Part shown: in pieces, positions 43,290-57,747 of the stretch | Position numbering within the stretch: the stretch's first letter is position 1 | Layout of the letters: each line of letters starts with the position of its first letter | From: an uncultured Christensenellaceae bacterium | Lineage (GTDB): Bacteria; Bacillota; Clostridia; Christensenellales; Borkfalkiaceae | Direction: 5' to 3' | Assembly: GCA_910588465.1 (NCBI GenBank) | Contig: CAJUOP010000007.1 | Location: forward strand, 20,462-84,461 | DNA length: 64,000 nt | Position numbers and translations under genes: made by a program | Notes under the pieces: generated by a model | Told to the model about the DNA's origin: nothing | The model's input: the letters and a program-made list of their open reading frames with translations, nothing else | Database searches by the model: none

Positions 43290-44759
43290 TTATTTGCGTA
43301 AAAGCGCGCGTTCTACGGCAAAACGGTAATCTCGGTAACCCTGCTCGACGCGCGAACGGTCCTGCGCGGGCGTAAAGATTTTTTCGGATTTTCTTAAATT
43401 TATGATTTCTTTTTCGTCCGTAAGTCCCAGCGAAACCGCGCACAGCAATGCGGCACCGAGAGCGGTGCTCTCCCGCTCGCACGGACGGTTTACCGAGATC
43501 CCCAGCACGTCCGCCTGAAACTGCATTAAAAAATCGTTGGCGCAGGCTCCGCCGTCGCACTTAATTTCGCGCAGGCGTATCTTACTGTCGCGCTGCATAC
43601 AGTCGGCTAAATCGCGTGCGCCGTAGGCAATGCTTTCAAGCACCGCCCGCACGATATGCTCCTTTTTCGTGCCGCGGGTAAGTCCCGATAAAAGCCCGCG
43701 CGCCTCCCCGTTCCAGTAGGGCGCGCCCAAGCCCGAAAAGGCGGGCACAAAGCAGACCCCGCCCGTATCGGGAACGGAACGGGCAAGCTGTTCGCTCTCC
43801 GCGCTCGTCTCTAAAAGTCCCAAGCCGTCGCGCAGCCATTGCACGGAAGAGCCTGCATGAAACGCGCTCCCCTCCAGCGCGTAAACCGTTTTCTCCGCGG
43901 TGGTATAGCCGATCGTGGTAAGCAAGCCGTTTTCCGAAGAAACGCACTTTTCGCCCGTGGAAAAGAGCAAAAACAAACCCGTTCCGTAGGTGATTTTCGC
44001 GTCGCCTTCGCTCAGGCACGCCTGTCCGTAAAGCGCCGCCTGTTGGTCGCCCGCAACGCCCGCGATCGGAATTTTTACGCCGCCGAACACCGCTTCTCCC
44101 ATGCGGGAGGTGCAGGCGCGCGGCTCGGGCAGCATATCGCGCGAGACCGAAAAATAACGCAACAATTCCGCGTCGTAATCGAGCGAACGGATATCGAACA
44201 GCATCGTACGCGAAGCGTTCGTGTGATCGGTCACGAACGCCTTTCCGCCCGTCAGCTTATAAATCAGATAGGAGTCGACCGTGCCCGCACACAGCTTTCC
44301 CGCCGCTTGCAGTCGGCGCGCCGCGGGGATATGATCGAGATTCCACTTTATTTTGCTTGCGGAAAAATAGGCGTCGGGCAACAGCCCCGTGCGCTCCTTG
44401 ATCCTCTTGCACGTTTCCCCGTCGATCGCGGCGCAAAAGGCGTCCGTACGGCGGCATTGCCACACGATCGCGGGACAGACGGGCTCCCCCGTCTCCCTGT
44501 TCCACATGACCGCCGTTTCGCGCTGGTTAGTAATGCCGATCCCCGCCACGTTTTCCGCACCGACCGCATTCACGCAGTCGTTCAGCACGTAGGCGGACTT
44601 GAAATAAATTTCGTTCGCGTCCTGCTCCACCCAGCCCGGCTGCGGATAGCTTTGCCCCACCTCCTGCTGCGCGCCGCGGATAAACCGCCCCGACCGCAAA
44701 TCGAAAACGAACGCGCGGACGCTCGTCGTGCCCGCGTCCAGCGCAATCACGTACTTCAT
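43290..44759 (-). CDS. glpK: glycerol kinase
   Basis: The sequence is colinear with GlpK: ALDAGTTSVRAFVFD, GWVEQDANEIY, GITNQRET, VWQCRRT, AGVAGDQQAALYGQ and TYGTG. The ATG at 44759 follows AAGGGG. Confidence 0.92.
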   Translation of the reverse strand: MKYVIALDAGTTSVRAFVFDLRSGRFIRGAQQEVGQSYPQPGWVEQDANEIYFKSAYVLNDCVNAVGAENVAGIGITNQRETAVMWNRETGEPVCPAIVWQCRRTDAFCAAIDGETCKRIKERTGLLPDAYFSASKIKWNLDHIPAARRLQAAGKLCAGTVDSYLIYKLTGGKAFVTDHTNASRTMLFDIRSLDYDAELLRYFSVSRDMLPEPRACTSRMGEAVFGGVKIPIAGVAGDQQAALYGQACLSEGDAKITYGTGLFLLFSTGEKCVSSENGLLTTIGYTTAEKTVYALEGSAFHAGSSVQWLRDGLGLLETSAESEQLARSVPDTGGVCFVPAFSGLGAPYWNGEARGLLSGLTRGTKKEHIVRAVLESIAYGARDLADCMQRDSKIRLREIKCDGGACANDFLMQFQADVLGISVNRPCERESTALGAALLCAVSLGLTDEKEIINLRKSEKIFTPAQDRSRVEQGYRDYRFAVERALLRK

Positions 44760-44769
44760 AAACACCCCT

Positions 44770-46692
44770 TTAAAACGATCTTCCGCCGCCTCCGCCGAAG
44801 CCTCCGCCGCCGAAGCCTCCCGAATGACCTCCGCCGAACCCTCCGCCGAAGCCGTGTCCTCCGCTGTTTTTCGAGGGTTTGGAGACCATGGTGCGCCCCA
44901 TATTCGAGCACATGGAGCGGCTGAGCGAATTCCACAGGATACAGCTGAACAGCACGTCGCCCGCGTCGTAACGCGCGTAGGAAGGCGGCTTCATATCCAG
45001 CCCCTTAAACTTCTCCGTCCAGGCGTCCGTCACGCCCAACACCTGCGCATACGGCAGCACTTTGTAGTAAATCTGCGGATTTTCTTTCAGCATAAATTCC
45101 ACCTTATCCCTCTCGGTCATCAGGATAAACTGTTTAAAGCCCAAAACCATGCCAAGCTTTTGCGAATACTCCTCCGTACGGCACTGAAAGAGCCCGCCGA
45201 TAACGCCCGTTGCCGCGGCAAATAATACCGCCGTTAATTTTCCTCCGAAACTAAACAGCGCGCTCGAAAAAATGCAAGGAAACATCCCGATTAAAATTCC
45301 GACAAGCGCCAAGCCCAAGGCGGCAAACACGCTGACCGTGCGTTTCCACTTGTACCAACGCTGCGCCGCCAACACGGAGCCGAGCGCGGCAAACACGTAA
45401 GCGAACAGACAGCCGATACAGGTTACGAAATCGCAGTATCCGGCGGAAACCGTAATAAAAGAATACAAAAAGATAAAACCGCCCAAACAAAGCACGGAGA
45501 GCAGTAAGAACAGAGCGAGAAACGCCGTGCCCTTTCCGCTGTAAAATTTCCCCGCAGCCATCTCCGCATTGCCGCGCACCGCCTCCGCCGTTTTGTAAAA
45601 ACTGCAATTCAAATCGGAAACGCGCACGCTGCTCCTGCCCTTAAACAGTCCCTCGTAAAATATTTTACAGTGCTCGGGCAAATCGTCCCCCGCCTTCTTT
45701 TCGGTCTTGATCAATACGGGATCCTTTTCGCCCTCCGTCATATCGATGGTCAAATAGTCGTTAGAGGCAAGATAAAATACCAGCGACCCGAAATCCTCGC
45801 CGTCTATTTTGTTGTCGATCAGTTTGCCCATCAAAAGCGGGTCCATATCGTCGGGCGCGGTAAGATTGACGGGCTTCACCAGCTGAGGCTGACGGCAAAT
45901 AAACAGCTTGGTTAAAACGGCAAGCGCAACGAGCGCCGCCCCGACGAGCACGACATAAAGCACGGTCAGATCGGGAGCGACGGAAAGCACCCCCGCCGCA
46001 AACCCGAAATCGACGGTAACGCCGCTGTTCTCGATTCCGCCCCCGCCGTCCACCGCAAATTCGAGCGAGGTTTCCGTGCGCTTGCACGCCTCGCCCACGC
46101 CCAGCGAATCCTGCTTGCTCAGCGCCCTGCCCGTATAAAACGCCAGATTTTGCAGTCCTTGCGGGAAATTGATTTTCGCGTGGATCTTTTCCACCCAGTT
46201 CCAACCGAATCCGACGACGTCCAGCGGAAGATACCCCTCCTCTTCCAGCGCGGGCACCGTCATAACATAAGAGAGCATCATTTCGTACGGGACGTGCGCT
46301 TGTAACGGAACACTACGATCACCCAGAGCTACGGACAGAATATTAGAACCGTCCTCCGCCTGCTCGGATTTGACTTTTTGCTTTACTTCGCCGCCGTTGA
46401 GCGATGAACGGAAGTTGCGGTAACGCACGCCGCGCTCGAGGGGCAAATCGAAAATAATGCCGTGCTTGCCGTCCGGAAATTCCACGGTAAGCGTGTTTAC
46501 CACTTCTATTTCGCGGTTTTCGTGCACCGTTATTTCCGCGTCGAACAGCTTTACGGTATAATCCGCCGCCCCGAATGAGTATCCCTCCGCCGAAATGCAA
46601 TCGGGCGGAGTTACCCCCGCCCAAAGCATCAGCGCAAGAAATACTGCCGCTATCAGCAACAGAAATGCTTTCGCTTTTTTTAACGATCTCAT
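44770..46692 (-). CDS. DUF2207-type membrane protein with a Gly-rich C-terminal tail
   Basis: 640 aa. It has a signal peptide, a large extracytoplasmic domain, a TM cluster and a C-terminus GGHGFGGGFGGGHSGGFGGGGFGGGGG. It sits downstream of lemA as usual. The family name is from memory. Confidence 0.75.
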   Translation of the reverse strand: MRSLKKAKAFLLLIAAVFLALMLWAGVTPPDCISAEGYSFGAADYTVKLFDAEITVHENREIEVVNTLTVEFPDGKHGIIFDLPLERGVRYRNFRSSLNGGEVKQKVKSEQAEDGSNILSVALGDRSVPLQAHVPYEMMLSYVMTVPALEEEGYLPLDVVGFGWNWVEKIHAKINFPQGLQNLAFYTGRALSKQDSLGVGEACKRTETSLEFAVDGGGGIENSGVTVDFGFAAGVLSVAPDLTVLYVVLVGAALVALAVLTKLFICRQPQLVKPVNLTAPDDMDPLLMGKLIDNKIDGEDFGSLVFYLASNDYLTIDMTEGEKDPVLIKTEKKAGDDLPEHCKIFYEGLFKGRSSVRVSDLNCSFYKTAEAVRGNAEMAAGKFYSGKGTAFLALFLLLSVLCLGGFIFLYSFITVSAGYCDFVTCIGCLFAYVFAALGSVLAAQRWYKWKRTVSVFAALGLALVGILIGMFPCIFSSALFSFGGKLTAVLFAAATGVIGGLFQCRTEEYSQKLGMVLGFKQFILMTERDKVEFMLKENPQIYYKVLPYAQVLGVTDAWTEKFKGLDMKPPSYARYDAGDVLFSCILWNSLSRSMCSNMGRTMVSKPSKNSGGHGFGGGFGGGHSGGFGGGGFGGGGGRSF

Positions 46693-46703
46693 ACGGATTT
46701 CCC

Positions 46704-47294
46704 TTAAAATCTCACCGCGGGAGCTTTGCGCTCCTCTTCGTCGTCCACTTCGAAATAAGCGCGGATCTCGAGCTTCATTTTACGCGCGATCATGCCCGTA
46801 AAGAAGTAGTCGAGGGAGGTATTGTATTCCTTTACCGTACCGTTATAGTAACGGCGGGCGGAAGCTAGCTCCGTTTCCACCTCGCTCAGCTGAGACTGCA
46901 AACTCATAAAATTGCCGTTCGCCTTTAATTCGGGGTAAGATTCCTTTAACTTAAACAGCGATTTCAGCGTGCCCGTAAGCGCGTTTTCCGCCGCGATCCG
47001 ATCGTCTCCCTTGGCGTTGATCGCCGCGCTGCGCGCCTTGATCACCGCTTCGAGCGTGCCGCTCTCGTGCTTGGCGTAGCCCTTTACCGTCTCGACCAGA
47101 TTGGGGATCAAATCGTAACGCTTTTTTAACTGCACGTCGATGGTAGCCCAGCCTTCGTCCACCAAATTTTTCAGCCGTTTCAGCTTATTGAACGTGGCGA
47201 CGTACCAAATGAACACAATGAGCAGAAGCAGCGCGACCGCTCCCGCAACGATCCCGACGATCGCCCCCGTTCCCAGTAACAGATTGTTGAACAT
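46704..47294 (-). CDS. lemA: LemA family protein
   Basis: 196 aa with an N-terminal TM helix, then FNKLKRLKNLVDEGWATIDVQLKKRYDLIPNLVETVKGYAKHE, the canonical LemA core. Confidence 0.9.
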   Translation of the reverse strand: MFNNLLLGTGAIVGIVAGAVALLLLIVFIWYVATFNKLKRLKNLVDEGWATIDVQLKKRYDLIPNLVETVKGYAKHESGTLEAVIKARSAAINAKGDDRIAAENALTGTLKSLFKLKESYPELKANGNFMSLQSQLSEVETELASARRYYNGTVKEYNTSLDYFFTGMIARKMKLEIRAYFEVDDEEERKAPAVRF

Positions 47295-47375
47295 ATTCTA
47301 TCTCCGTATAATAGATTTTGTAATGTTATTATATCATGCAACCGCCGTAAAATCAACGCTTGCGCTGAAAAAATT

Positions 47376-48230
47376 TTAAATAAGTTTTAAAATATTGCGG
47401 TAAATTTCCGTATCTTCGTTTAAATATGTATCGAAAATAATCTTCATTTTGCCGCTGCCGTGCTTTAACCGCCAGTTCATCGCCGCGCCTACGGCGATTT
47501 CCGCCGCCTCCGCCCGAGGAAAGTTGAACACTCCCGTAGACACGCAGCAAAACGCCACCGACCTTAGCCCCGCCTCTTCGGCAAGGTTCAGACAGGAGGT
47601 ATAACAGGAACGGAGCGCCGCCCTGTCCCTTTCACTCACTTCGCTCCCCACCATAGGACCCGCCGTGTGCAACACGTATTTGCAGGGAAGATTGTAAGCG
47701 AGAGTAAGCTTTGCGTCGCCGCACTCCTCCTCGCAGCCCTGCGCGGAAATGATTTTAGAGCAATCTCCTCTCAGCTGCATTCCCGCATAGGAGTGGATCG
47801 CGTTGTCGATGCAGTTGTGTCCGGGCAAAAAACAGCCGAGCATGGCGCGGTTCGCGGCGTTTACGATCGCGTCCGCGTTCAGGCGGGTGATATCTCCCTG
47901 CCACAGCGAGATCCCGTATTCGTTTGCGGGAAGCTCTTCGGTTTTTACGATCCCGCGTTCCAGCGTCTCCGTCCAGAACAGACGGTCCTGCACCGCCGCG
48001 ATCTCTTCCGGAACGGGCAGCGGAGCGCGCAAGTTCATATATCTGCGCACCAGCGTCCGCTTTTTCTCGTACGGCGCGCTGAACGCCGCGATCATGCCCC
48101 GTTCGCGCAGCAAAAATTTTAACAGCGCGTCGCAGGCTTCCGTTTTTTCCGCCTGCGTACGGTAGGGCTCGGGACGCGGATAGGGCGAAAGCGAAAGGAT
48201 TTTTCGACACTCTTCGAACGAAAGCCCCAT
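47376..48230 (-). CDS. macrodomain protein-ADP-ribose hydrolase (MacroD type with ~100-aa N-terminal extension)
   Basis: The motifs LWQGDITRLNADAIVNAANRAMLG...IDNAIHSYAG...LHTAGP...VFNFP are macrodomain signatures. Confidence 0.85.
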   Translation of the reverse strand: MGLSFEECRKILSLSPYPRPEPYRTQAEKTEACDALLKFLLRERGMIAAFSAPYEKKRTLVRRYMNLRAPLPVPEEIAAVQDRLFWTETLERGIVKTEELPANEYGISLWQGDITRLNADAIVNAANRAMLGCFLPGHNCIDNAIHSYAGMQLRGDCSKIISAQGCEEECGDAKLTLAYNLPCKYVLHTAGPMVGSEVSERDRAALRSCYTSCLNLAEEAGLRSVAFCCVSTGVFNFPRAEAAEIAVGAAMNWRLKHGSGKMKIIFDTYLNEDTEIYRNILKLI

Positions 48231-48232
48231 GG

Positions 48233-50311
48233 TTACTCCGAAACTTTATCCGCGTTGATCTGCCCGCCTGCCAGCAATATCCGCACTTCTTCCGCGGACG
48301 GCGAGCCCGTATAAAGCACCGCGTCCCGCGTTTTCCCCTTGGAAAATACCTTTACCAGAATGCGCCTGTCTCCGCGCTTTAACGCGTCCGTCAAACCCTC
48401 GAGCAGAAGCGTGTCTCCCGCCTTCCATTCGATTTTGTCCGCCACGAGAGGAACGATCCCCGCATTGACGAGCGCGGCGCGCGCCCCCTCGCCGTATTCC
48501 TTACACACGAACACCATACAGCCGAACGCGCGCAGGCAAAGCGCGGTAAGCCCTCCCCGACGGGAAAGGGTCAGCTTGCCCGCCGCCATCGCCCCGCCGT
48601 ATTCGCAGCCCTTTACGGGAGTAAATCCGCCGAGGTCTTTTTTCACGCTCTCCGAAAAACTCTTGTTTTCGCGCTCTGTGCGAACCGCCGCGCCCCGAAC
48701 CGCACACTGTGCGTCGGTCGCCGCCAAAATCTTTTCCGCCGCATTCATGGGCTGAGAACGGTGTGCGAAAAAATCCGCGTCCGACAGCAGGTCGGTCTCG
48801 CTCAGCGCGCCCTTTCCGCATGCGGTCAGCTTTAACAGCAGGTGCTTGGGCAGAGCGGAATATGCGGGATAGCACGGCACGGTCGCAAACGAAATCTCCG
48901 TGTTGCCGTCCGCCTTGCCCGCGCTGCGGAACGCGCCCGCATAAACCGCGGGATCGAATTTGTATTTTTTCAACCGTTTGGCATATTCGCCGTCGAGCGC
49001 GGACGTCACTGCGCCGCCGCTTTTCAAGCTGAACGCGATCGAGCGCGTATCCATACAGTACGCCCCCTCGCCCGGGAAGCAGCCGACGGAAAATCCGCCG
49101 CTCACCGTTGCGGGGATACGGCTTCCCGCGCCCCGTACCTCCGCGCCGAGCAAAGCAAAATCGGCAAGATAGCCGTTTTCGGCAAGCGCCCTCAGCTCCG
49201 CCTGCGAACGGACGGACACGAACGTTTCCGCCCCGCACGCGCCGCCGCGCATGATCTCGGCAAACTCCGCCGCCGCTTCGTAAGAGCCTCCGACGATTGC
49301 CTGCGTCAGATACGCCTTCTTCTGCGCCGTGTTGCGGGAAAGCGCTCCCGACGGGTCCGCGCGCAGCAGAAATTCCGAAGGACGCTCCGCAAACTCCCGC
49401 ACCGTGCATATTTCCGCAAGACGAGGAAATGCGAGCATGGGCTCGATACGCGTCAAGTCCACCATGACGCCCCAATCGTAATAGGCGGGCTGTTTGGGCG
49501 CCAAATGCTTATAAGCCTTCGCCCTGCCCCGTTCCTTGAAAAATTCTTCCGTCCGCTCGTCCGTCTCCCACACGGTGCCGAAGCAGTCCGACTCCGCCAT
49601 GAAAGCATCGACCGTATTGCGCGTATCCATCGACAGATTGGAAAGCCCCGCGCCGAAAAACTCGAACAACTTCCCCTCGGCAAATTTGCCCTGTCTTACC
49701 GTCTGCAACAGCGCGAGCGCGATATCGACGGGACCGACCCCCTTGCGCGGCTTGCCCCGAAGATAAACCGCGACCGTCTGCGGCGGCTCGAACCCGAAAG
49801 GCTTGCCCGCAAGCGCGCACGCCAGCTCTTCGCGCTCCGCACCGACCGCCAACGCCCCCAGAGCGCCGAATCCCGCGCTTTGAAAGCCGAGGTAAACCTG
49901 CCCGCTCTTCGCCGTTAAATCGCGTAAAAATCCGAAATCGGAGCTGAGCGACGCGGGCACGAAGTCCGCCCCGAAACGCTTTGCGCACCGCGATAAAAAT
50001 TCGTTTTCATCCGCGCGCAGGCTGCCCTCTCCGCAGTCCTCCACGCCGCCCAGGGTGAGCGGCAACGCGCAAGTCTCGGCGCCCAGCGCCAGAACCGTCT
50101 GCATCAAAGATACTCCGTCGCGCCCGCCGACAGCGACCGCGTCCGCCTTTAATACGCTTCCGCCCTCTTCCACCGTATGCGCCGAAAGCACGGCATGAGC
50201 AACCGTATTTTTTACCGCCTTTTCCCGCTTGTCGGACGTCATAAACGCTTGCGCCTCTTTCACGAGATGCCCATCCATAAAATAGACGCCCTGACGAATC
50301 AATTTAACCAT
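48233..50311 (-). CDS. aconitase-fold protein lacking Fe-S ligands and catalytic residues (predicted pseudoenzyme)
   Basis: 692 aa, colinear along its whole length with ~640-aa clostridial aconitases. For example, FEFFGAGLSNLSMDTRNTVDAFMAE aligns with IEYGGEGVKTLSVPERATITNMGAE, and the C-terminal swivel domain ends ...AGIVPLVAD..W..GD.L. The signature motifs are replaced as follows: DQTLTQD->DAVAVGG, GSDSHT->GFQSAG, IGSCTN->IVGGSY, CGPCIG->GAGSRIP, SSREHA->SRRGGL. Confidence 0.65.
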   Translation of the reverse strand: MVKLIRQGVYFMDGHLVKEAQAFMTSDKREKAVKNTVAHAVLSAHTVEEGGSVLKADAVAVGGRDGVSLMQTVLALGAETCALPLTLGGVEDCGEGSLRADENEFLSRCAKRFGADFVPASLSSDFGFLRDLTAKSGQVYLGFQSAGFGALGALAVGAEREELACALAGKPFGFEPPQTVAVYLRGKPRKGVGPVDIALALLQTVRQGKFAEGKLFEFFGAGLSNLSMDTRNTVDAFMAESDCFGTVWETDERTEEFFKERGRAKAYKHLAPKQPAYYDWGVMVDLTRIEPMLAFPRLAEICTVREFAERPSEFLLRADPSGALSRNTAQKKAYLTQAIVGGSYEAAAEFAEIMRGGACGAETFVSVRSQAELRALAENGYLADFALLGAEVRGAGSRIPATVSGGFSVGCFPGEGAYCMDTRSIAFSLKSGGAVTSALDGEYAKRLKKYKFDPAVYAGAFRSAGKADGNTEISFATVPCYPAYSALPKHLLLKLTACGKGALSETDLLSDADFFAHRSQPMNAAEKILAATDAQCAVRGAAVRTERENKSFSESVKKDLGGFTPVKGCEYGGAMAAGKLTLSRRGGLTALCLRAFGCMVFVCKEYGEGARAALVNAGIVPLVADKIEWKAGDTLLLEGLTDALKRGDRRILVKVFSKGKTRDAVLYTGSPSAEEVRILLAGGQINADKVSE

Positions 50312-50349
50312 AATTCCCTCGCTCGTAATTTTTTTATACCGTTCGATTT

Positions 50350-50378
50350 ATTATATCGCGTTCGGACGAATATTTCAA
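50350..50378 (-). promoter_or_regulatory. sigma-A promoter of the aconitase-like/macrodomain operon
   Basis: The minus strand reads TTGAAA-17 nt-TATAAT. Confidence 0.6.
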
Positions 50379-50436: not shown

Positions 50437-50465
50437 TTGCTTTTTTCGGAAATTTGGGCTATAAT
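50437..50465 (+). promoter_or_regulatory. divergent promoter, apparently giving a leaderless mRNA for the 50473 gene
   Basis: The sequence is TTGCTT-17 nt-TATAAT. The ATG at 50473 lies 7 nt after the -10 element, and there is no SD. Confidence 0.45.
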
Positions 50466-50472
50466 TTCAAAC

Positions 50473-50985
50473 ATGAAAGATAAAGAACCGATCATCAAAA
50501 AATATGCGTTTCGTTTTTCCGCCGTTATGCTCGCCGTTCTGATCGCGGGGCTCGTACTTTGCGCGGCGTGCTTTGCCCTCACCACCTGGCAGTTTACGGG
50601 ATTTTTAACGGGCGACGTTTCTTCTTTTTACGAATGGGTCAAATACGCGCTCCTCTACTTTGTGAGCGTGTTCCTCGCCGTGCTCATCACCGCAATGCTC
50701 GTTCGCTCGCAATACGTGCTTACGGAAAAAGAGCTGATTCTGCAATTCGGTTTTTTAAAGACCCGCTACGACGTGAAAAAGATTTTTTCGGTCTGTCTTT
50801 TGAACGGCTCGAAAAAGCTGTGCCTTTACTTCGACGATTTTAAAACCAAATACGCCACCGTGGTTGTGAAAGAGGAATGGTACGACGACTTTATTAAGAC
50901 GCTCACCTCGCTGAACGAACGGATCGAATTCGACTTCTCCACCTACGAGGACGAACAGCAAGGCAAAAAGAACAAGAAAAAATGA
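50473..50985 (+). CDS. membrane protein with two TM helices and a bacterial PH-like C-terminal domain
   Basis: The protein starts MKDKEPIIKKYAFRFSAVMLAVLIAG... and has two hydrophobic helices followed by a soluble domain. The PH-like call is a weak recollection. Confidence 0.55.
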   Translation: MKDKEPIIKKYAFRFSAVMLAVLIAGLVLCAACFALTTWQFTGFLTGDVSSFYEWVKYALLYFVSVFLAVLITAMLVRSQYVLTEKELILQFGFLKTRYDVKKIFSVCLLNGSKKLCLYFDDFKTKYATVVVKEEWYDDFIKTLTSLNERIEFDFSTYEDEQQGKKNKKK

Positions 50986-52114: not shown

Positions 52115-52119
52115 GTAAG

Positions 52120-52168
52120 AACCTAAATTGAACACCCTATAACGGGTAGTTTGATTTAGGTTTTTTTG
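52120..52168 (+). terminator. terminator-like hairpin after tRNA-Ser
   Basis: The sequence is AACCTAAATTGAAC...GTTTGATTTAGGTT, followed by TTTTTTTG. Confidence 0.5.
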
Positions 52169-52218
52169 TTTGTCTTTTTTTCGTGTTAACATAAAAATGG
52201 CGGTTTATGCCGCGAAAG

Positions 52219-52342
52219 CCGCTTGACATGAGAAAGGCGTGCGGTAGGCTATTTTGCCAACGGCAAACAATAAGCCCCGCAGGGGCGGTGGGTTTGGCTC
52301 TTTGCCTGAATACCGCACGCCTGCGAGGCTCATGTCAAGCGG
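52219..52342. repeat. nested inverted repeat (14 bp + 12 bp arms around a 64-nt core) just 3' of the recombinase gene
   Basis: CCGCTTGACATGAG (52219-52232) pairs with CTCATGTCAAGCGG (52329-52342). AGGCGTGCGGTA (52235-52246) pairs with TACCGCACGCCT (52311-52322). The core contains the mini-hairpins TTGCC-AAC-GGCAA and GCCCC-GCA-GGGGC. Confidence 0.7.
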
Positions 52343-52366
52343 AACGTGGAATAAATAGCCGTTGCG

Positions 52367-53839
52367 TTATATCGTTAAAATCACGGTAACGTTTTGCGCC
52401 GCGTTTATCTGAATGGTTTTAGAGTAAAAAGAAAAGCCCTGACTGTCGTCAGGACTAATTCTTATCGGGCTGTTATAGTGAATTTCTATTTTATCGTCAA
52501 ATAGCACGATTTCCTTAATCAGATAGTTGATAAGCATTTGCGGCTCTAATTTCAACGCTTGTATGTAAAACTGTTTCATGTCGCTTTCAGACAGCTTTAC
52601 GGCGGTTTTACTGCGCTCTATGAGTATCTGCCTTTCTAAATTCTCTTGCTGTTCTTCAAGCTCTTTCAAACGCTTTGTCGTGGTGTTGGTGATTACGCCT
52701 TTTTCAATCGCCGTCATGATATTCTTAATCGCGTTTTCCGTCTGCCGTTTCTCTTTGGTAAGCATATTCAAAACGGGCGTTCCTTTGGCTTGCTGTTCCT
52801 GTATATCGAGCATCCCTTTAACAAGTGCATTAACAACTTGCGGTTTGCTCAATTCTTCAAGCGTGGTATCAATCACTAAATTTTCTAAAAGATCTTTGCG
52901 TATTACAGACTTATTACAATCGCTACCGCGCTTTCTTCCAGAACACTTGTAATAGCGTTTCACCTGTCCGTTTTTGGAAGTACCCGTTTCCGCGCTAATC
53001 GGCATACCGCAATACCCGCATTTCATTTTCTGCCGTAAGAGATAGACGACTTCAACGCTACGCTTGCCGTATTTATTCCCGTCGATTTTAGAGCGTACCC
53101 GTTCATATATTTCGGTGGGAACGATTTGCGGATAGATATTCTCGAACACTTCTCCGTCGTGTCTGTAAATACCCGAATATTTTTCACTCTTTAAGATGTT
53201 ATAAACGGTGTTCCTCGCAAACGGTTTTCCGTGATTATAAATTCCTTTTGCGGTCAACGATTTTATGATGTCTTTCACATACACGCCCAAAGAGTATTGC
53301 TCAAAAATAAAGCGGACTACTTCGGCTTGGTTTTTGTTGATTACTACTTTCCTGTTTTCCACGTTATAGCCGTAAATCAAATAACCGCCTGTAAAATTTC
53401 CCTTTAACCGTGTTTCTTTCATACCTCTGCGCACCTTTTGAGAAAGCTCGGCACTGAAATATTGGTTCATGCCTTCAAGTAAGCTCTCCAAAATAATTCC
53501 TTCGGGCGTGTCGGGAATATTTTCCATAGCCGATAAAAGCGTAACGCCGTTGTTTTTAAGCGTTTTTTTATGAATAGTGCTTTCATACTTGTTACGGGAA
53601 AATCTATCAAGCTTGTAAACGATAACGAAATCCCATTCGCGCCGTGCGCTTTCCTTTATCATGCGCTGAAAATCGGGGCGGTTGTCGTTCGTTCCCGTCA
53701 TAGCTCTGTCGATGTAGGTATTGAGAATTAGAATATTATTCCTCTGTGCATATTCTTCGCACACCCTCAACTGCCCCTCAATAGACTGCTCTGACTGACT
53801 GTCCGACGAATACCTTGCATAGATGACTGCTGTTTTCAT
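52367..53839 (-). CDS. large serine recombinase (resolvase domain + recombinase domain + zinc ribbon + coiled coil)
   Basis: 490 aa. It has the N-terminal catalytic motif AVIYARYSSDSQ, then DRFSRN, GGYLIYGY, and the zinc ribbon CGYCGMP...YYKCSGRKRGSDC. Confidence 0.9.
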   Translation of the reverse strand: MKTAVIYARYSSDSQSEQSIEGQLRVCEEYAQRNNILILNTYIDRAMTGTNDNRPDFQRMIKESARREWDFVIVYKLDRFSRNKYESTIHKKTLKNNGVTLLSAMENIPDTPEGIILESLLEGMNQYFSAELSQKVRRGMKETRLKGNFTGGYLIYGYNVENRKVVINKNQAEVVRFIFEQYSLGVYVKDIIKSLTAKGIYNHGKPFARNTVYNILKSEKYSGIYRHDGEVFENIYPQIVPTEIYERVRSKIDGNKYGKRSVEVVYLLRQKMKCGYCGMPISAETGTSKNGQVKRYYKCSGRKRGSDCNKSVIRKDLLENLVIDTTLEELSKPQVVNALVKGMLDIQEQQAKGTPVLNMLTKEKRQTENAIKNIMTAIEKGVITNTTTKRLKELEEQQENLERQILIERSKTAVKLSESDMKQFYIQALKLEPQMLINYLIKEIVLFDDKIEIHYNSPIRISPDDSQGFSFYSKTIQINAAQNVTVILTI

Positions 53840-53867
53840 TTCAAAACTCCTTATAAATTAGATTTTT

Positions 53868-54024
53868 TATTTGTCTTTCGACAAGGACGGACAAAACGGA
53901 AACGCATGGGCTTATTTCTTATTAGCCGTTCATTCCTTTCCCGCAAGGGCTACCGCAGGTAGTGCATTTTACCCTTGCGGGAAAGTGCGTTTTCGTTTAC
54001 GATCCGCCGGTCGAAAGACAAATA
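53868..54024. repeat. 15-bp perfect inverted repeat flanking a 127-bp segment with an inner 12-bp stem, between rep and the recombinase gene
   Basis: TATTTGTCTTTCGAC (53868-53882) pairs with GTCGAAAGACAAATA (54010-54024). The inner stem is TTCCCGCAAGGG (53938-53949) with CCCTTGCGGGAA (53972-53983), and its loop carries CTACC-GCA-GGTAG. Confidence 0.7.
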
Positions 54025-54026
54025 CG

Positions 54027-54908
54027 TTAGTTGCATTTGGGCATTTGTTTTATCACTTCTTCGCTTGCCTGCCCGACAATGCAGCCGTCCTCAATGCAAG
54101 TGAATTTATCAAATAATATCGCTTTTCTGCCGTCCACCCCGTAGGGGCAAATAATATCGTCGTCAAAAATGTCGCTTACGAAATAGGTTGGAAGTTTTCC
54201 GCCGTAAATCAACCGCTCGTTGCTTTTCTCTATGTATTTGAGCAGGTAACGCACGGACTGCATGACATCTTCCAATCTGCCTAATTCCTTGAAATCGTTT
54301 CGTCCAAAATGCTTTTGAAAGTGCGTGTTCTGAAAGGTCGTTTGCATACGGTGGCTTTTCGTGCTGTAATCTTTAACTTCCACAAGCTCGCCTATCATTT
54401 CGGGAATATAGAATATTCCGTGAAAGTGTAGTCGGTTCTTTTCGGGGCTTCGTTCCCATACGCCGATATACTTCCAACCTTTACGGCTCACCATGTGTTT
54501 TAAGGTATTTCGCAACTTTTCTTTGAACGTTTTTTCCGTGTGAAGCTCATTGCTGAACGTGAACGTTACAAAATAGTTCCATTCCTGCAAATACACTTTT
54601 CGCATTAGCCGAACGCGCCGTTTCGCCGCATTGGTTTTCTTGCGCTCGATATTGCTCTCGATAAATTCCTTTGCGCGTTCTTCGGTGAGAAAAGTGTCTT
54701 GCAATTTCTCTTTGATATATTTCTTTCGTTCTCGTTTCGGTAAGCTCTGACTTTCCGAATATGCCATTTCAAATTTGGCTTTCGGACTGTCGGACACTTC
54801 CCGCTTGGGCTTCGGCTTATATCTCCGCTTACGGCGCGGGAAATTTTCGGGCGGCATGGCGATAAAATGACTGCCGTCGTAATAGACTTTTGCTTTTTGA
54901 TATGACAT
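54027..54908 (-). CDS. rolling-circle replication initiator / HUH endonuclease, phiX174-gpA-like (two-tyrosine) type
   Basis: Motif I is YFVTFTF, motif II (HUH) is RLHFHGIFY, and motif III is VRYLLKYIEKS (Y-x-x-x-Y-x-x-K). The N-terminus is basic. The ATG at 54908 is preceded by GGAGAA. Confidence 0.7.
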   Translation of the reverse strand: MSYQKAKVYYDGSHFIAMPPENFPRRKRRYKPKPKREVSDSPKAKFEMAYSESQSLPKRERKKYIKEKLQDTFLTEERAKEFIESNIERKKTNAAKRRVRLMRKVYLQEWNYFVTFTFSNELHTEKTFKEKLRNTLKHMVSRKGWKYIGVWERSPEKNRLHFHGIFYIPEMIGELVEVKDYSTKSHRMQTTFQNTHFQKHFGRNDFKELGRLEDVMQSVRYLLKYIEKSNERLIYGGKLPTYFVSDIFDDDIICPYGVDGRKAILFDKFTCIEDGCIVGQASEEVIKQMPKCN

Positions 54909-54947
54909 GATTTTTTCTCCTTTTTTGATTTGATTTTTTGCGGTAAA

Positions 54948-54999
54948 TAAAAAAAGAGCAGAATACAAAACAATACAAATGTTTCGTACTCTGCTCTTT
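54948..54999 (-). terminator. hairpin with T-run upstream of rep (ends the small-ORF transcript)
   Basis: The minus strand reads AGAGCAGAGTAC-19 nt-GTATTCTGCTCT, followed by TTTTTTTA. Confidence 0.45.
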
Positions 55000-55103
55000 T
55001 CTCAACGCAACCACTGTTCCTATGCGGAAATCTCGGCTTGCCGTTGGGCGGTACAATCTTACTTTCTATTTACCTTGATTGGTTATTCAGTTGTTTTTTC
55101 TTT

Positions 55104-55232
55104 TTAGTCTTTTTGTGCTTTTAACTCTTTAATTCGCTGTAACAGCGTTTCAAAGAATGTCTTCCGTTCGTTTTCCGATAGTAAATTATCGGCTTCTTCA
55201 ATGGTTATCACTTCAAATTCTTTCGCGGACAC
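55104..55232 (-). CDS. 42-aa acidic helical protein (possible accessory/directionality or regulatory factor), unannotated in the ORF track
   Basis: A GTG start is preceded by GGGAGGTG 8 nt upstream. The translation is VSAKEFEVITIEEADNLLSENERKTFFETLLQRIKELKAQKD. I recognise no family. Confidence 0.3.
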   Translation of the reverse strand: MSAKEFEVITIEEADNLLSENERKTFFETLLQRIKELKAQKD

Positions 55233-55312
55233 CGTTTTCACCTCCCGTTCGGATTTGCTTGAAAAGCAAATCCCATTATACACCGCCCGTAAACAAATTG
55301 CGCGGGAATAAA

Positions 55313-55380
55313 GGGGAACAAAAGCGGTACAAAATAGGAACTAAAAGGAAACTAAACGGGAACTAAAAGTGTACAAAATA
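55313..55380. repeat. iteron-like array of six 11-bp-phased repeats
   Basis: The units are GGAACAAAAG / GGTACAAAATA / GGAACTAAAAG / GAAACTAAACG / GGAACTAAAAG / TGTACAAAATA, read off directly from 55315-55380. Confidence 0.65.
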
Positions 55381-55409
55381 CAAGTTTACGGGTAGAAACG
55401 CAGGAACAG

Positions 55410-55472
55410 CCGCGCGGATCAAAAAGGGCGATTCGCCAAGCGGGTTAGCGGCGAACGCCCTTTTCCGCGCGG
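55410..55472. repeat. long GC-rich hairpin C (about 23 bp stem)
   Basis: CCGCGCGG..AAAAGGGCG.TTCGCC pairs with GGCGAACGCCCTTTTCCGCGCGG around the loop AAGCGGGTTAGC. Confidence 0.65.
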
Positions 55473-55528
55473 CGTTTCGTTTCGCCGTGCATATTTTATG
55501 TTTAGTTGTGTTTGTTCTTTTGTTTCCG

Positions 55529-55593
55529 CTGTGGCGGGGGCTTGAACGCGGCGGCGAAGCCGCCGCGCTCGTTTATTCAAGCACCCGCCACAG
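55529..55593. repeat. long GC-rich hairpin D (about 26 bp stem)
   Basis: CTGTGGCGGG-GCTTGAA-CGCGGCGGC forms one arm, the loop is GAA, and GCCGCCGCG-(bulge)-TTCAAGC-CCCGCCACAG forms the other arm. No T-run follows on either strand. Confidence 0.65.
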
Positions 55594-55611
55594 TGCCAAG
55601 CATTCGCTTTA

Positions 55612-56484
55612 CTAATTTATATCTATAATTTCCGTACCGCTTATCGTTAAATACCATAAGTCCGCTTTACCGATTGTATCACTGTTTTCTACTAAAAAGT
55701 GCAATTCAAATTTACCGTCTATTCGGTGTAGCTCGGCATAGATAATTCTACTCCACGGACAATTCGGTTTGCTTTTGTCGTAGGGAAATATTACTTTATC
55801 TTTGCCCTCTAAAATTTCACCGTCTTTTATCAGTAAACAATCATTGTTTTCAGTTTTCAAATAAATATTGCCGCCTTTTTCTTCAATGCCCATGAGCAAA
55901 TATTCATTATATTCGTTTAAGTCGAGTTCTTGCGTTAAGCTGCTTTCCGCATCGTTCGTTTCGGAATATGCTTTATCTTTTATTTTTTTAACGGTTTTCT
56001 GCAATTTCGCACAATACGGACGCAGCAATTTTTTTACTTCCGCACTCGCATATCCCAATGCAAATACGCGGATATCTGCAATTTTGCTCAATATCTCCTG
56101 CGGCAGTTGACTGTAAATAGCAATCAATTCTCGGTTACGCTCTTCAAATTGTTCCGCGCATAGTTTTTCGTCAAAGTGATATACCGTTTTATTTCGGTTA
56201 TCGTATAAAATTTCGTGCATTTTCTTAAATTCTATCCTGCGCTTGCGTTCTTCTAAGGTAATATTCGGTTCGTTGACGTATACCTCGATTTTTTTCAATT
56301 CTACCTCTGTGTCGCGATACCAATCGCATGATTTGCTGAATCCCTCGAAAATTGCGTAAATTTTTTCATAGGTACGCCGATAAAAAGTCTCGTCTTTTTG
56401 TTCGGCTTTCTTCGATTTCCGTACATGCGAATTTGCATACGATAAAAGCTCACACGTGTAAAATTCTTTTGTCAAATATTTCAT
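55612..56484 (-). CDS. hypothetical island cargo protein (possibly DUF4085-like)
   Basis: 290 aa with AT-rich codon usage. The N-terminus MKYLTKEFYTCELL and the segment ADIRVFALGYASAEV remind me of DUF4085 proteins. This is memory only and unverified. Confidence 0.6.
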   Translation of the reverse strand: MKYLTKEFYTCELLSYANSHVRKSKKAEQKDETFYRRTYEKIYAIFEGFSKSCDWYRDTEVELKKIEVYVNEPNITLEERKRRIEFKKMHEILYDNRNKTVYHFDEKLCAEQFEERNRELIAIYSQLPQEILSKIADIRVFALGYASAEVKKLLRPYCAKLQKTVKKIKDKAYSETNDAESSLTQELDLNEYNEYLLMGIEEKGGNIYLKTENNDCLLIKDGEILEGKDKVIFPYDKSKPNCPWSRIIYAELHRIDGKFELHFLVENSDTIGKADLWYLTISGTEIIDIN

Positions 56485-56840
56485 AATTTATCTCCTGTAT
56501 TTTAATTTTTTAAGTTTAATATCAATACCGGTACTCTTCTTTATCTACCATATAGCGGTTGCGTTTCAACATACATTCGTGCGTATAACGTTCGGAAACG
56601 AGCGTTACTTTGTCTGCCTTTTTTAGGATATGGTGATACCGCGCAATATCTTTTTTATCTCATTTCAAAGTTTGGTTGAGGCACGGAACGGCGCATTCCA
56701 AGGTTAGAAGATACAATAATTCTTTCTACAATCGCAAAATTACGCGGTAACGCTACTTATTGCATACATTGTAGCACGCATTAAAATTTATGTCAACCGT
56801 TATAGAATATTATTGTTAGCACATATTATTGGGGAAGCTT

Positions 56841-57155
56841 ATGACGGTTCAAGAACGAATAGAAGAATTGTTAGAAAAAAATAAATGGTCTAAATATAAA
56901 CTTGCCAAAGAAGCAGGATTTTATCCCACTACTGTTTATGATTGGTTTAATGATAAGCACTATACACCTGATAGAAATTCTATTGAATTGATATGTTTAG
57001 CATTTGGGATTTCACAAGCAGAATTTTATAGCCGAGTAGATGAAAATAAATTAAATGCTGACCAAACAGCACTATTAGAATTGTTTTCAAAGATACCAGA
57101 AAATAAAAAAGCACTGATTTTTGAGATACTAAAATCAATGGCACAACAAGAATAA
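56841..57155 (+). CDS. XRE-family HTH transcriptional regulator
   Basis: The protein reads MTVQERIEELLEKNKWSKYKLAKEAGFYPTTVYDWFNDKHYTPDRNSIELICLAFGISQAEFY, followed by a short C-terminal helix. GGGGAA lies upstream of the ATG at 56841. Confidence 0.8.
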   Translation: MTVQERIEELLEKNKWSKYKLAKEAGFYPTTVYDWFNDKHYTPDRNSIELICLAFGISQAEFYSRVDENKLNADQTALLELFSKIPENKKALIFEILKSMAQQE

Positions 57156-57168
57156 ATTTTGAAATGTT

Positions 57169-57483
57169 ATGAATATTCACGGTAGAATACAAGAGCTTAT
57201 CCAAAAAGAAGGTTGGTCGTTATATCAATTATCCGAAAAAACAGGTATTCATAAAACAACTGTTTATAATTGGTACAATGAAAAACATTATACGCCAGAT
57301 AGAAATTCTATTGAATTGATATGTGCCGCATTAGATATAACATTATCTGAATTTTATAGCGGAATTGACGAAGGCGATCTTGATGGTGAGCAAATACATT
57401 TATTGGAATTATTTGCAAAAGTGCCGCCACGTAAAAGAAAAATCGTTTTTGAACTTTTACGAAACTTGTCGGACGAAATATAA
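57169..57483 (+). CDS. XRE-family HTH transcriptional regulator, tandem paralog
   Basis: The protein reads MNIHGRIQELIQKEGWSLYQLSEKTGIHKTTVYNWYNEKHYTPDRNSIELICAALDITLSEFY. A 27-nt block is identical to the upstream paralog (56970-56996 = 57298-57324). Confidence 0.8.
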   Translation: MNIHGRIQELIQKEGWSLYQLSEKTGIHKTTVYNWYNEKHYTPDRNSIELICAALDITLSEFYSGIDEGDLDGEQIHLLELFAKVPPRKRKIVFELLRNLSDEI

Positions 57484-57520
57484 GGACGTAAGTTAAACTT
57501 TGTGTTCAACTTACGTCCTT
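57482..57520 (+). terminator. hairpin overlapping the stop of the second XRE gene
   Basis: The sequence is AAGGACGTAAGTT-13 nt-AACTTACGTCCTT. Confidence 0.5.
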
Positions 57521-57535
57521 ATTGGCGCGCCACAT

Positions 57536-57579
57536 CAAACCCAACTGAACCCGTAAACGGGCGCAGTTGGGTTTGTTTT
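57536..57579 (+). terminator. intrinsic terminator near the right end of the island
   Basis: The sequence is CAAACCCAACTG-16 nt-CAGTTGGGTTTG, followed by TTTT. Confidence 0.6.
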
Positions 57580-57747
57580 ATGAATTGAGTTTATAATAAG
57601 CTTTTGCCCAACTGACGGACTGCCGCGTTTTCTGATATTAAGCTTTTCCAAATAACAAAAAAACATTTGTAAACATGATGATTTCCGTAACTTACAAACG
57701 CCTTTTTACCCGTTTAATTCTTATAAATTTTTCTTTCTTATAATCCT

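Follow-up and report, generated by a model that had tools for sequence, protein, structure and literature searches.

A predicted catalytically dead aconitase-fold protein, encoded beside a Zn-dependent macrodomain in an uncultured Christensenellaceae bacterium, is maintained by purifying selection

Results

We analyzed a two-gene locus in a 64,000-nucleotide stretch of DNA from an uncultured Christensenellaceae bacterium (assembly GCA_910588465.1, contig CAJUOP010000007.1, positions 20,462 to 84,461; hereafter the window, in whose numbering the features below are given). The first gene encodes a 692-aa protein that keeps a predicted aconitase fold and appears, from the residues at its former active site, to be catalytically dead; the second encodes a 284-aa Zn-dependent macrodomain. 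An earlier reading of the same DNA, which we call the original prediction, had suggested that the pair could be a new sensing or regulatory module. Going beyond it, the results presented here demonstrate that the 692-aa protein is an ortholog that has degenerated as part of a natural decay series, yet is under purifying selection. We consider it probable that the protein descends from a YbhJ-type hydratase, is encoded in an inherited operon and, though dead, is selectively maintained and has kept a non-catalytic role. The elements of the two-gene unit are as follows.

48233 to 50311, minus strand: gene of the 692-aa protein, a predicted catalytically dead YbhJ-type aconitase-family protein (pseudo-hydratase), assigned from the open reading frame, profiles and an AlphaFold2 model
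47376 to 48230, minus strand: gene of the 284-aa Zn-dependent MacroD-type macrodomain, a predicted protein-ADP-ribose hydrolase, assigned from NF003163, structures 8rsi and 5kiv and motifs
50350 to 50378, minus strand: putative sigma-70-type promoter of the two-gene unit, TTGAAA-17-TATAAT (a consensus match only, 11 of 12 positions)
50315 to 50320, minus strand: putative ribosome-binding site GAGGGA, a few nucleotides before the ATG at 50311
50204 to 50311, minus strand: codons 1 to 36, encoding the N-terminal module MVKLIRQGVYFMDGHLVKEAQAFMTSDKREKAVKNT, where the dead clade described below is best conserved

The 692-aa protein has lost the aconitase active site and retains the fold

The Pfam Aconitase profile (PF00330) matched residues 105-396 only of the 692-aa protein (1e-31). 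Its best NCBIfam model was NF008503/PRK11413, the YbhJ-type family (E 3e-91), with a score of 306.4 bits, which is under the curated cutoff of 641. A homolog search over 5.8 billion proteins recovered 96 relatives, and the motif comparison covered 91 homolog clusters, over which motif loss was all-or-none. About 50 clusters, with lengths of 736-759 aa, carried six invariant motifs (SHDITY, GSDSHT, GCAGG, FCGPCFGAGD, RHTTRNFENREGS and GDGSAREQAA), the three cluster cysteines included. All six were gone from about 41 clusters of 590-753 aa, among them the 692-aa protein, in which SHDITY is replaced by VGGRDG, GSDSHT by GFQS-A and GDGSAREQAA by TLSRRGGLTA, and RHTTRNFENREGS is deleted. The dead set has physically lost two active-site loops, namely the Cys loop and the RNFxNR loop. 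The replacements on which the original prediction had built its case (DAVAVGG, GFQSAG, IVGGSY, GAGSRIP and SRRGGL) are all present and stand opposite invariant motifs of the intact homologs.

At the columns of the iron-sulfur (Fe-S) ligands, all intact homologs (100%) have Cys, compared to 0%, 6% and 12% of the sequences in the dead clade; the 692-aa protein has a gap, a serine and a gap there. The dead clade shows no conserved substitute Cys triad, and only two non-ligand columns contain Cys in more than 50% of its sequences. The claimed loss of the three Fe-S cysteines therefore stands also after a check for ligands at shifted positions.

An AlphaFold2 model computed from a 54-sequence alignment reached a pLDDT of 90.6 and a pTM of 0.89. 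Foldseek aligned this model over its full length with mitochondrial aconitase (1nis/5acn/7acn; E~1e-39, TM 0.65, 15% identity), followed by IRP1, the large subunit of IPM isomerase and LeuD, with IRP2 (6vcd) also among the matches; a LeuD-like C-terminal domain was matched as well. In the model, the 692-aa protein retains the four-domain aconitase fold, in agreement with the end-to-end aconitase alignment that had been proposed. Compared with an active aconitase-superfamily hydratase, it would have the fold and lack both the Cys ligands and the substrate-binding and catalytic motifs, a combination that leads us to class it as a predicted catalytically dead aconitase-fold protein. With the YbhJ family (NF008503/PRK11413; E. 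coli YbhJ) it shares the best-scoring profile, the four-domain fold, the N-terminal segment and the length class, but it differs in scoring under the family cutoff, in the loss of three cysteines and all motifs, and in the deletion of two loops. The function of YbhJ was not addressed in the papers listed by our literature search, as judged by title and abstract. We know of no described bacterial aconitase-family pseudoenzyme.

The homolog search also returned a 4729-aa protein (P0106) that matched the 692-aa protein in 35 stretches, the best of them covering residues 458-557 (27% identity, 244 bits). This match is probably artefactual, caused by the composition or the repeats of an Ala/Gly-rich linker.

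The dead hydratase evolves fast under relaxed but real constraint

Between the window and a near-identical metagenome contig (L134), the pseudo-hydratase gene differs by 12 synonymous and 3 nonsynonymous changes, a ratio of nonsynonymous to synonymous rates (dN/dS) of 0.08 (P = 1.1e-5 compared to 75% nonsynonymous sites). In a second pair, drawn from a dead subclade with 637-639-aa proteins (L135 and L137), we counted 91 synonymous and 50 nonsynonymous changes (dS 0.27; dN/dS 0.14). The neighbours in this pair had values of 0.065 for the macrodomain, 0.066 for a short-chain dehydrogenase (SDR) and 0.05 for LemA, and an intact hydratase pair gave 0.06. The constraint on the dead hydratase is relaxed yet real, with purifying selection in two independent close pairs. 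The dN/dS values of 0.08 and 0.14 therefore speak against a pseudogene and for a maintained pseudoenzyme, the expression of which is predicted from the promoter and ribosome-binding site consensus.

Over longer distances, dead hydratases are 36-53% identical where the adjacent macrodomains are 61-76% identical, compared to 76-80% and 63-70%, respectively, in intact lineages. The ratio of hydratase dN to macrodomain dN was about 2-2.5 in dead lineages versus about 0.55-0.7 in intact ones, values that are qualitative only for diverged pairs because synonymous sites are saturated there (NG86 method). Relative to its neighbours, the dead hydratase has thus undergone an acceleration of about four-fold. 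Divergence of the macrodomain was similar whether its partner hydratase was dead or intact.

The remaining constraint is unevenly distributed. Mean conservation in the segments of the old active site has fallen from at least 0.9 to 0.0-0.4 in the dead clade, while residues 1-40, 181-200, 341-360 and 421-440 and the C-terminal 70 residues are as conserved as in active enzymes. Residues 1-36 alone hold 20 of the 88 positions that are at least 85% conserved in the dead clade (MVKLIRQGVY..G..VKE.QAFMTSDKK..A.KNT). We also considered a DNA or RNA element under these codons and rejected it: codons for the same amino acid are identical in only 57% of cases, and since the N-terminal codons vary synonymously, the constraint acts on the protein. 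Across the dead clade the net charge ranges from -24 to +16 and the isoelectric point (pI) from 4.8 to 9.1, and the spread in charge argues against a conserved nucleic-acid-binding surface.

The pairing with the macrodomain was inherited from an ancestor with an active hydratase

Related loci were gathered by alignment query, and single-protein scans of genome and metagenome contigs gave no close relatives. The loci retrieved are titled Candidatus Gallimonas merdigallinarum, G. intestinalis, G. merdae or "uncultured Christensenellaceae" and come from the gut of chicken, rabbit and mouse; the next genus outward is Candidatus Coproplasma. The comparison involves the following neighbours, beyond the last of which on the pseudo-hydratase side lies the SDR gene (minus strand).

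47328 to 47356, minus strand: promoter-like site preceding LemA, TTGATT-17-(TG)TATAAT, from a consensus scan
46704 to 47294, minus strand: LemA, from Pfam and synteny in relatives
44770 to 46692, minus strand: DUF2207, from Pfam and synteny in relatives
43290 to 44765, minus strand: glycerol kinase (glpK), from Pfam and synteny in relatives
50437 to 50985, plus strand: gene of a small 182-aa membrane protein, divergent neighbour of the 692-aa reading frame, from tblastn linkage and weak Pfam hints

The stop codon of the 692-aa reading frame (TAA) is followed by CC and then by the ATG of the macrodomain, a gap of 2 nt. Both this junction and the consensus promoter upstream of the pair were found as the original prediction had described them. 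The promoter-like site before LemA is the likely 3' limit of the unit, which, given this second site, is probably a two-gene operon.

Genome searches across the order identified YbhJ-type hydratase matches in 245 of 301 genomes (E<=1e-10), the weaker of which are probably other aconitase-family genes. The source genome (G000; 1.94 Mb, 41 contigs, 95% complete) contains a single aconitase-family gene and a single macrodomain genome-wide. At the same site, the congener G279 has an intact 741-aa hydratase that is 42% identical to the 692-aa protein. It is flanked by the same membrane-protein gene and by a macrodomain that is 68% identical to that of the window, and again stop and start codons abut. 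This synteny, together with nesting among intact sequences in the hydratase tree, indicates that the 692-aa protein is orthologous to the YbhJ-type (PRK11413) hydratase and has degenerated.

We then compared 80 species-representative loci of the Gallimonas and Coproplasma types. A macrodomain downstream of the hydratase was restricted to the Gallimonas-type set, where about 30 species have it, and the hydratase was intact in nearly all of these. At least seven further lineages combine the dead form with a downstream macrodomain (P0002, P0048, P0051, P0057, P0090, P0068 and P0069), and in all species examined stop and start codons abut or overlap, with the hydratase dead or intact. Adjacency of the two genes was not seen outside the Gallimonas-type clade in the 301 genomes of the order: five of them (G003, G009, G020, G029 and G130) have both genes far apart, and the other 28 top-scoring loci have no macrodomain within 1.5 kb of the hydratase. 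Within the clade, either gene occurs without the other. Three congeners (G212, G229 and G246) keep the SDR, the membrane protein, the macrodomain, LemA, DUF2207 and glpK, with about 200 bp in place of the hydratase and no aconitase-family match genome-wide. Conversely, the macrodomain is absent beside one dead hydratase (L042) and three intact ones (L062, L065 and L071). Since relatives carry an intact hydratase with the same macrodomain at the same site, the pairing predates the inactivation; it is inherited from an ancestor with an active hydratase, confined to one genus-level clade, and separable. Of the co-occurrence on which the original prediction depended, recurrence in relatives was confirmed, but the recurrence is limited to this clade and extends to intact hydratases.

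The membrane-protein gene adjoins the hydratase in 77 of the 80 loci, in both genera, and is divergent in all but one (L090; tblastn). This linkage is much deeper than the pairing with the macrodomain, and the membrane-protein gene stays where the hydratase is deleted. The 182-aa protein has two predicted transmembrane helices and one weak Pfam hint (bPH_4, E 0.08).

Inactivation has apparently occurred at least three times

At this one locus, Gallimonas-type bacteria present a series of intact, early-degenerate, dead, truncated and deleted hydratases. The early-degenerate form (L067) keeps the three cysteines and is changed at sites that are otherwise invariant (SHDVAY, TNRRNS, CGSC, GAGG, RHTTCNFENR and WATD); its sister, L079, has an intact hydratase. 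Clustering at 90% identity divides the dead clade into more than 40 clusters that keep long open reading frames; at 50% identity, there are at least 20 such clusters. The truncated form is exemplified by the G294 remnant, about 400 aa long (L147; contig C7, 5899-7161), which retains the N-terminal motif VIRQNVYYMENRLVKESQAFMTSDKREAAKKRT, lacks domain 4 and has no adjacent macrodomain. Four truncated database clusters of 400-535 aa have the same architecture (P0076, P0081, P0086 and P0105).

In the hydratase tree, the main dead set is one clade (support 100) that falls within the intact Gallimonas sequences, its branches being 4-10 times longer. A second tree, built from the flanking genes (macrodomain, membrane protein, SDR and glpK), places the intact locus L050 inside the group that contains the window (support 99) and the three deletion species as sister to P0090, the most degenerate form (support 100). 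It rejects a single clade of dead and deleted species (approximately unbiased (AU) test, p = 0.00016, post hoc). A further dead form, P0102, has a Coproplasma-type N-terminus and nearest relatives that are all intact. We therefore rejected a single origin of the dead forms: their grouping in the hydratase tree is likely due to long-branch attraction, the flank-gene tree is against it, and L067 and P0102 are separate events. Inactivation would thus have happened at least three times, apparently independently.

The macrodomain is intact and its usual writer was not found

The 284-aa protein scored 303.4 bits against NF003163, above the curated cutoff of 272, and residues 31-281 aligned with two Zn-Macros of known structure, 8rsi (E 7.7e-73) and 5kiv (E 4e-59); its N-terminal extension aligns to 8rsi from residue 7. 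The hallmarks of Zn-Macros are the NAAN motif, the Cx(4)HxC Zn-loop, an Asp/His dyad and an N-terminal 3-alpha bundle (Ariza 2024, PMC11490716). The 284-aa protein has IVNAAN, the Zn-loop (C-FLPG-H-N-C), the dyad IDNAIH and an N-terminal helical extension. Zn-loop and IDNxIH are invariant in all of more than 40 Gallimonas-type macrodomains, and NAAN has single-residue variants in a few. By these measures the protein is an intact Zn-dependent macrodomain (Zn-Macro) with predicted zinc binding, which agrees with the intact macrodomain hydrolase originally described.

In the source genome, SirTM was not detected (no PF02146 match at E<=0.1; tblastn with three SirTMs of the order, E>0.6), and its absence is probable, not certain, in an assembly that is 95% complete. 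The search for an ADP-ribosyltransferase partner that had been suggested thus came out negative in this genome for SirTM and likewise for Tpt1 and ADPrib_exo_Tox; DarT also gave no match there, a result that carries no information, since the search control was silent as well. The order contains canonical pairs of Zn-Macro and SirTM (L130-L132), as does the family (G175). SirTM adjoins the macrodomain in G294 (L038), away from the hydratase remnant, lies after glpK and four genes downstream of the macrodomain in G212 (L035, 2607-3446), and is on another contig in G246. In G279 and G229, as in the source genome, it was searched for and not found. Lacking SirTM, its usual writer, the macrodomain of the window is an orphan eraser. 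We also considered that the locus could be a defence system and rejected this reading, since no PADLOC model matches any of the five locus proteins.

The SirTM/Zn-Macro system (Rack 2015, PMC4518038; Ariza 2024, PMC11490716) offers the closest comparison. Score and motifs mark the protein of the window as a bona fide Zn-Macro, and canonical pairs are found in the same order, even the same genus (G294, G175 and L130-L132), but the source genome has no SirTM and the locus has no GcvH-L/LplA operon. A macrodomain downstream of a hydratase gene is a context that a keyword search did not find in PMC11490716.

Loss of the active site coincides with absence of isocitrate dehydrogenase

An NADP-isocitrate dehydrogenase (IDH) of about 400 aa was present in 6 of 6 genomes with an intact hydratase (G279, G007, G129, G046, G175 and G194) and in 0 of 5 with a dead, remnant or deleted one (G000, G294, G212, G229 and G246). 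Citrate synthase (PF00285) was found only in the Coproplasma-type genomes tested. In the genus genomes checked, the intact hydratase is the only aconitase-family gene. Because it is the sole such gene and co-occurs with IDH, the intact YbhJ-type enzyme is probably the aconitase of the cell, acting in the oxidative branch towards 2-oxoglutarate. The pattern suggests that loss of the IDH-containing branch freed the active site of the hydratase.

Discussion

We favor, with moderate confidence, the reading that the 692-aa protein is a dead but selectively maintained YbhJ-type descendant in an inherited operon. Its aconitase fold and the purifying selection acting on it mean that a non-catalytic role has most likely been kept. 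In the scenario that we propose, the intact ancestor would have served as aconitase beside the NADP-isocitrate dehydrogenase, and IDH would have been lost in the lineage of the window. The hydratase would then have lost the cluster ligands, all substrate-binding motifs and two active-site loops, and would have come to evolve about four times faster than its neighbours. A non-catalytic role, already ancestral, would most likely have been retained; we favor protein binding or scaffolding for it, with the N-terminal 36-residue module and the structural core as the parts involved. The operon arrangement would date from the Gallimonas ancestor, at a time when the hydratase was still active, and have been inherited since. 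Several observations weigh against this account. Deletion of the gene in three congeners and its truncation in a fourth indicate that it is dispensable in some backgrounds, and the tight 2-nt junction, kept in about 40 species, could reflect a functional link to the macrodomain. The correlation with IDH comes from 11 related genomes that are phylogenetically non-independent, and G279 has IDH and no PF00285 citrate synthase, which leaves the pathway assignment incomplete.

Such a functional link would make the dead hydratase and the Zn-macrodomain an ADP-ribosylation module independent of SirTM, with the hydratase as substrate, adaptor or regulator, a possibility that we regard as unlikely. Abutting or overlapping codons in all species examined and purifying selection on both genes would fit it, and Fe-S hydratases are sensitive to oxidation. 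The SirTM/Zn-Macro system is itself linked to oxidative stress (PMC11490716), and a macrodomain that persists without SirTM in three genomes (G000, G279 and G229) must have another substrate. But the pairing predates inactivation and is found in one genus-level clade only, the macrodomain is kept where the hydratase is deleted, and the hydratase is kept at the four loci from which the macrodomain is absent. In G294, moreover, the macrodomain occurs with SirTM elsewhere than the hydratase, of which only a remnant is left, the macrodomain diverges alike with a dead or an intact partner, and no ADP-ribosyltransferase of the families searched was found in the source genome. We give slightly less credence still to the idea that the dead hydratase was recruited as a non-catalytic partner of a SirTM-less Zn-macrodomain, an ex-metabolic scaffold replacing the GcvH-L/SirTM context. 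If true, the partnership would be a previously undescribed ADP-ribosylation-linked module and the most interesting outcome of this work. Over the dedicated sensing or regulatory module of the original prediction, the evidence favors a maintained pseudoenzyme in an inherited operon.

The gene could also be functionless and heading for loss, its low dN/dS reflecting selection against misfolding or toxicity, or translation through to the coupled macrodomain. The graded series, which within the genus leads on to truncation and deletion, the shrinkage of the dead form from 753 down to 621 aa, the roughly four-fold higher rate of amino-acid substitution relative to neighbours and the unconserved active-site regions are all in line with this. 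Values of dN/dS of 0.08 and 0.14 are nevertheless far below 1, and translational coupling alone would keep an open frame, not an amino-acid sequence. Long reading frames across the clusters of the dead clade and an N-terminal module as conserved as in active enzymes point the same way, and we hold this reading to be about as unlikely as the ADP-ribosylation module. Two further ideas would retain a use for the aconitase scaffold itself. IRP1, IRP2 and bacterial apo-aconitases set a precedent for RNA binding, and a permanently "apo" protein that binds mRNA in the manner of IRP2 would accord with the complete loss of the cluster and with IRP1 and IRP2 among the Foldseek matches. IRP2 (IREB2), to which the model is a structural match (6vcd), is likewise an inactive aconitase-fold protein kept for a non-catalytic role, but it is eukaryotic, belongs to the AcnA/IRP subfamily, which is distinct from the YbhJ type, and binds IRE RNA. 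In the dead clade charge and cleft are unconserved: the ranges of net charge and pI leave no conserved basic surface, the segments of the inter-domain cleft are the least conserved parts, and truncated forms occur without domain 4; nothing here indicates a role in RNA binding. The analogy with RNA-binding apo-aconitases that had been drawn is weakened by this range of charge, and we judge an IRP2-like regulator improbable. A repurposed enzyme or small-molecule sensor, relying on the former pocket with newly acquired residues but without a cluster, seems to us the least probable of all. The preserved fold and domain arrangement, modeled with high confidence, would allow it, but the pocket-lining segments have a mean conservation of 0.0-0.4 in the dead clade, with deletions, and outside the N-terminus the clade has gained no conserved polar residues of its own.

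The maintained pseudoenzyme that we favor is of wider interest in several respects. Five states at one locus, apparently tied to the loss of IDH, make a clean natural system for the passage from enzyme to pseudoenzyme, and the locus also bears on which second functions are open to a protein with the aconitase fold. It provides a testable functional hypothesis, aconitase, for the YbhJ family in Clostridia, which is uncharacterised. Zn-Macros, so far described as partners of SirTM, persist under selection in SirTM-less genomes, which points to unknown substrates or writers.

Additional features of the region

Only some Gallimonas species have the LemA-DUF2207 pair between the macrodomain and glpK; in the others, the macrodomain is followed directly by glpK (loci compared: L039, L041 and L048). 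The pair behaves like an insertion/deletion cassette that carries its own promoter. Antisense reading frames of up to 1240 aa run over GC-rich hydratase genes (L004, 1-3723, plus strand; window, 48842-49918, plus strand); such frames are expected artefacts of stop-poor, GC-rich coding DNA and no genes. Near the locus, an AT-rich block at 52115-57584 (GC 0.36-0.42 compared to about 0.55) contains a large serine recombinase and is unrelated to the operon.

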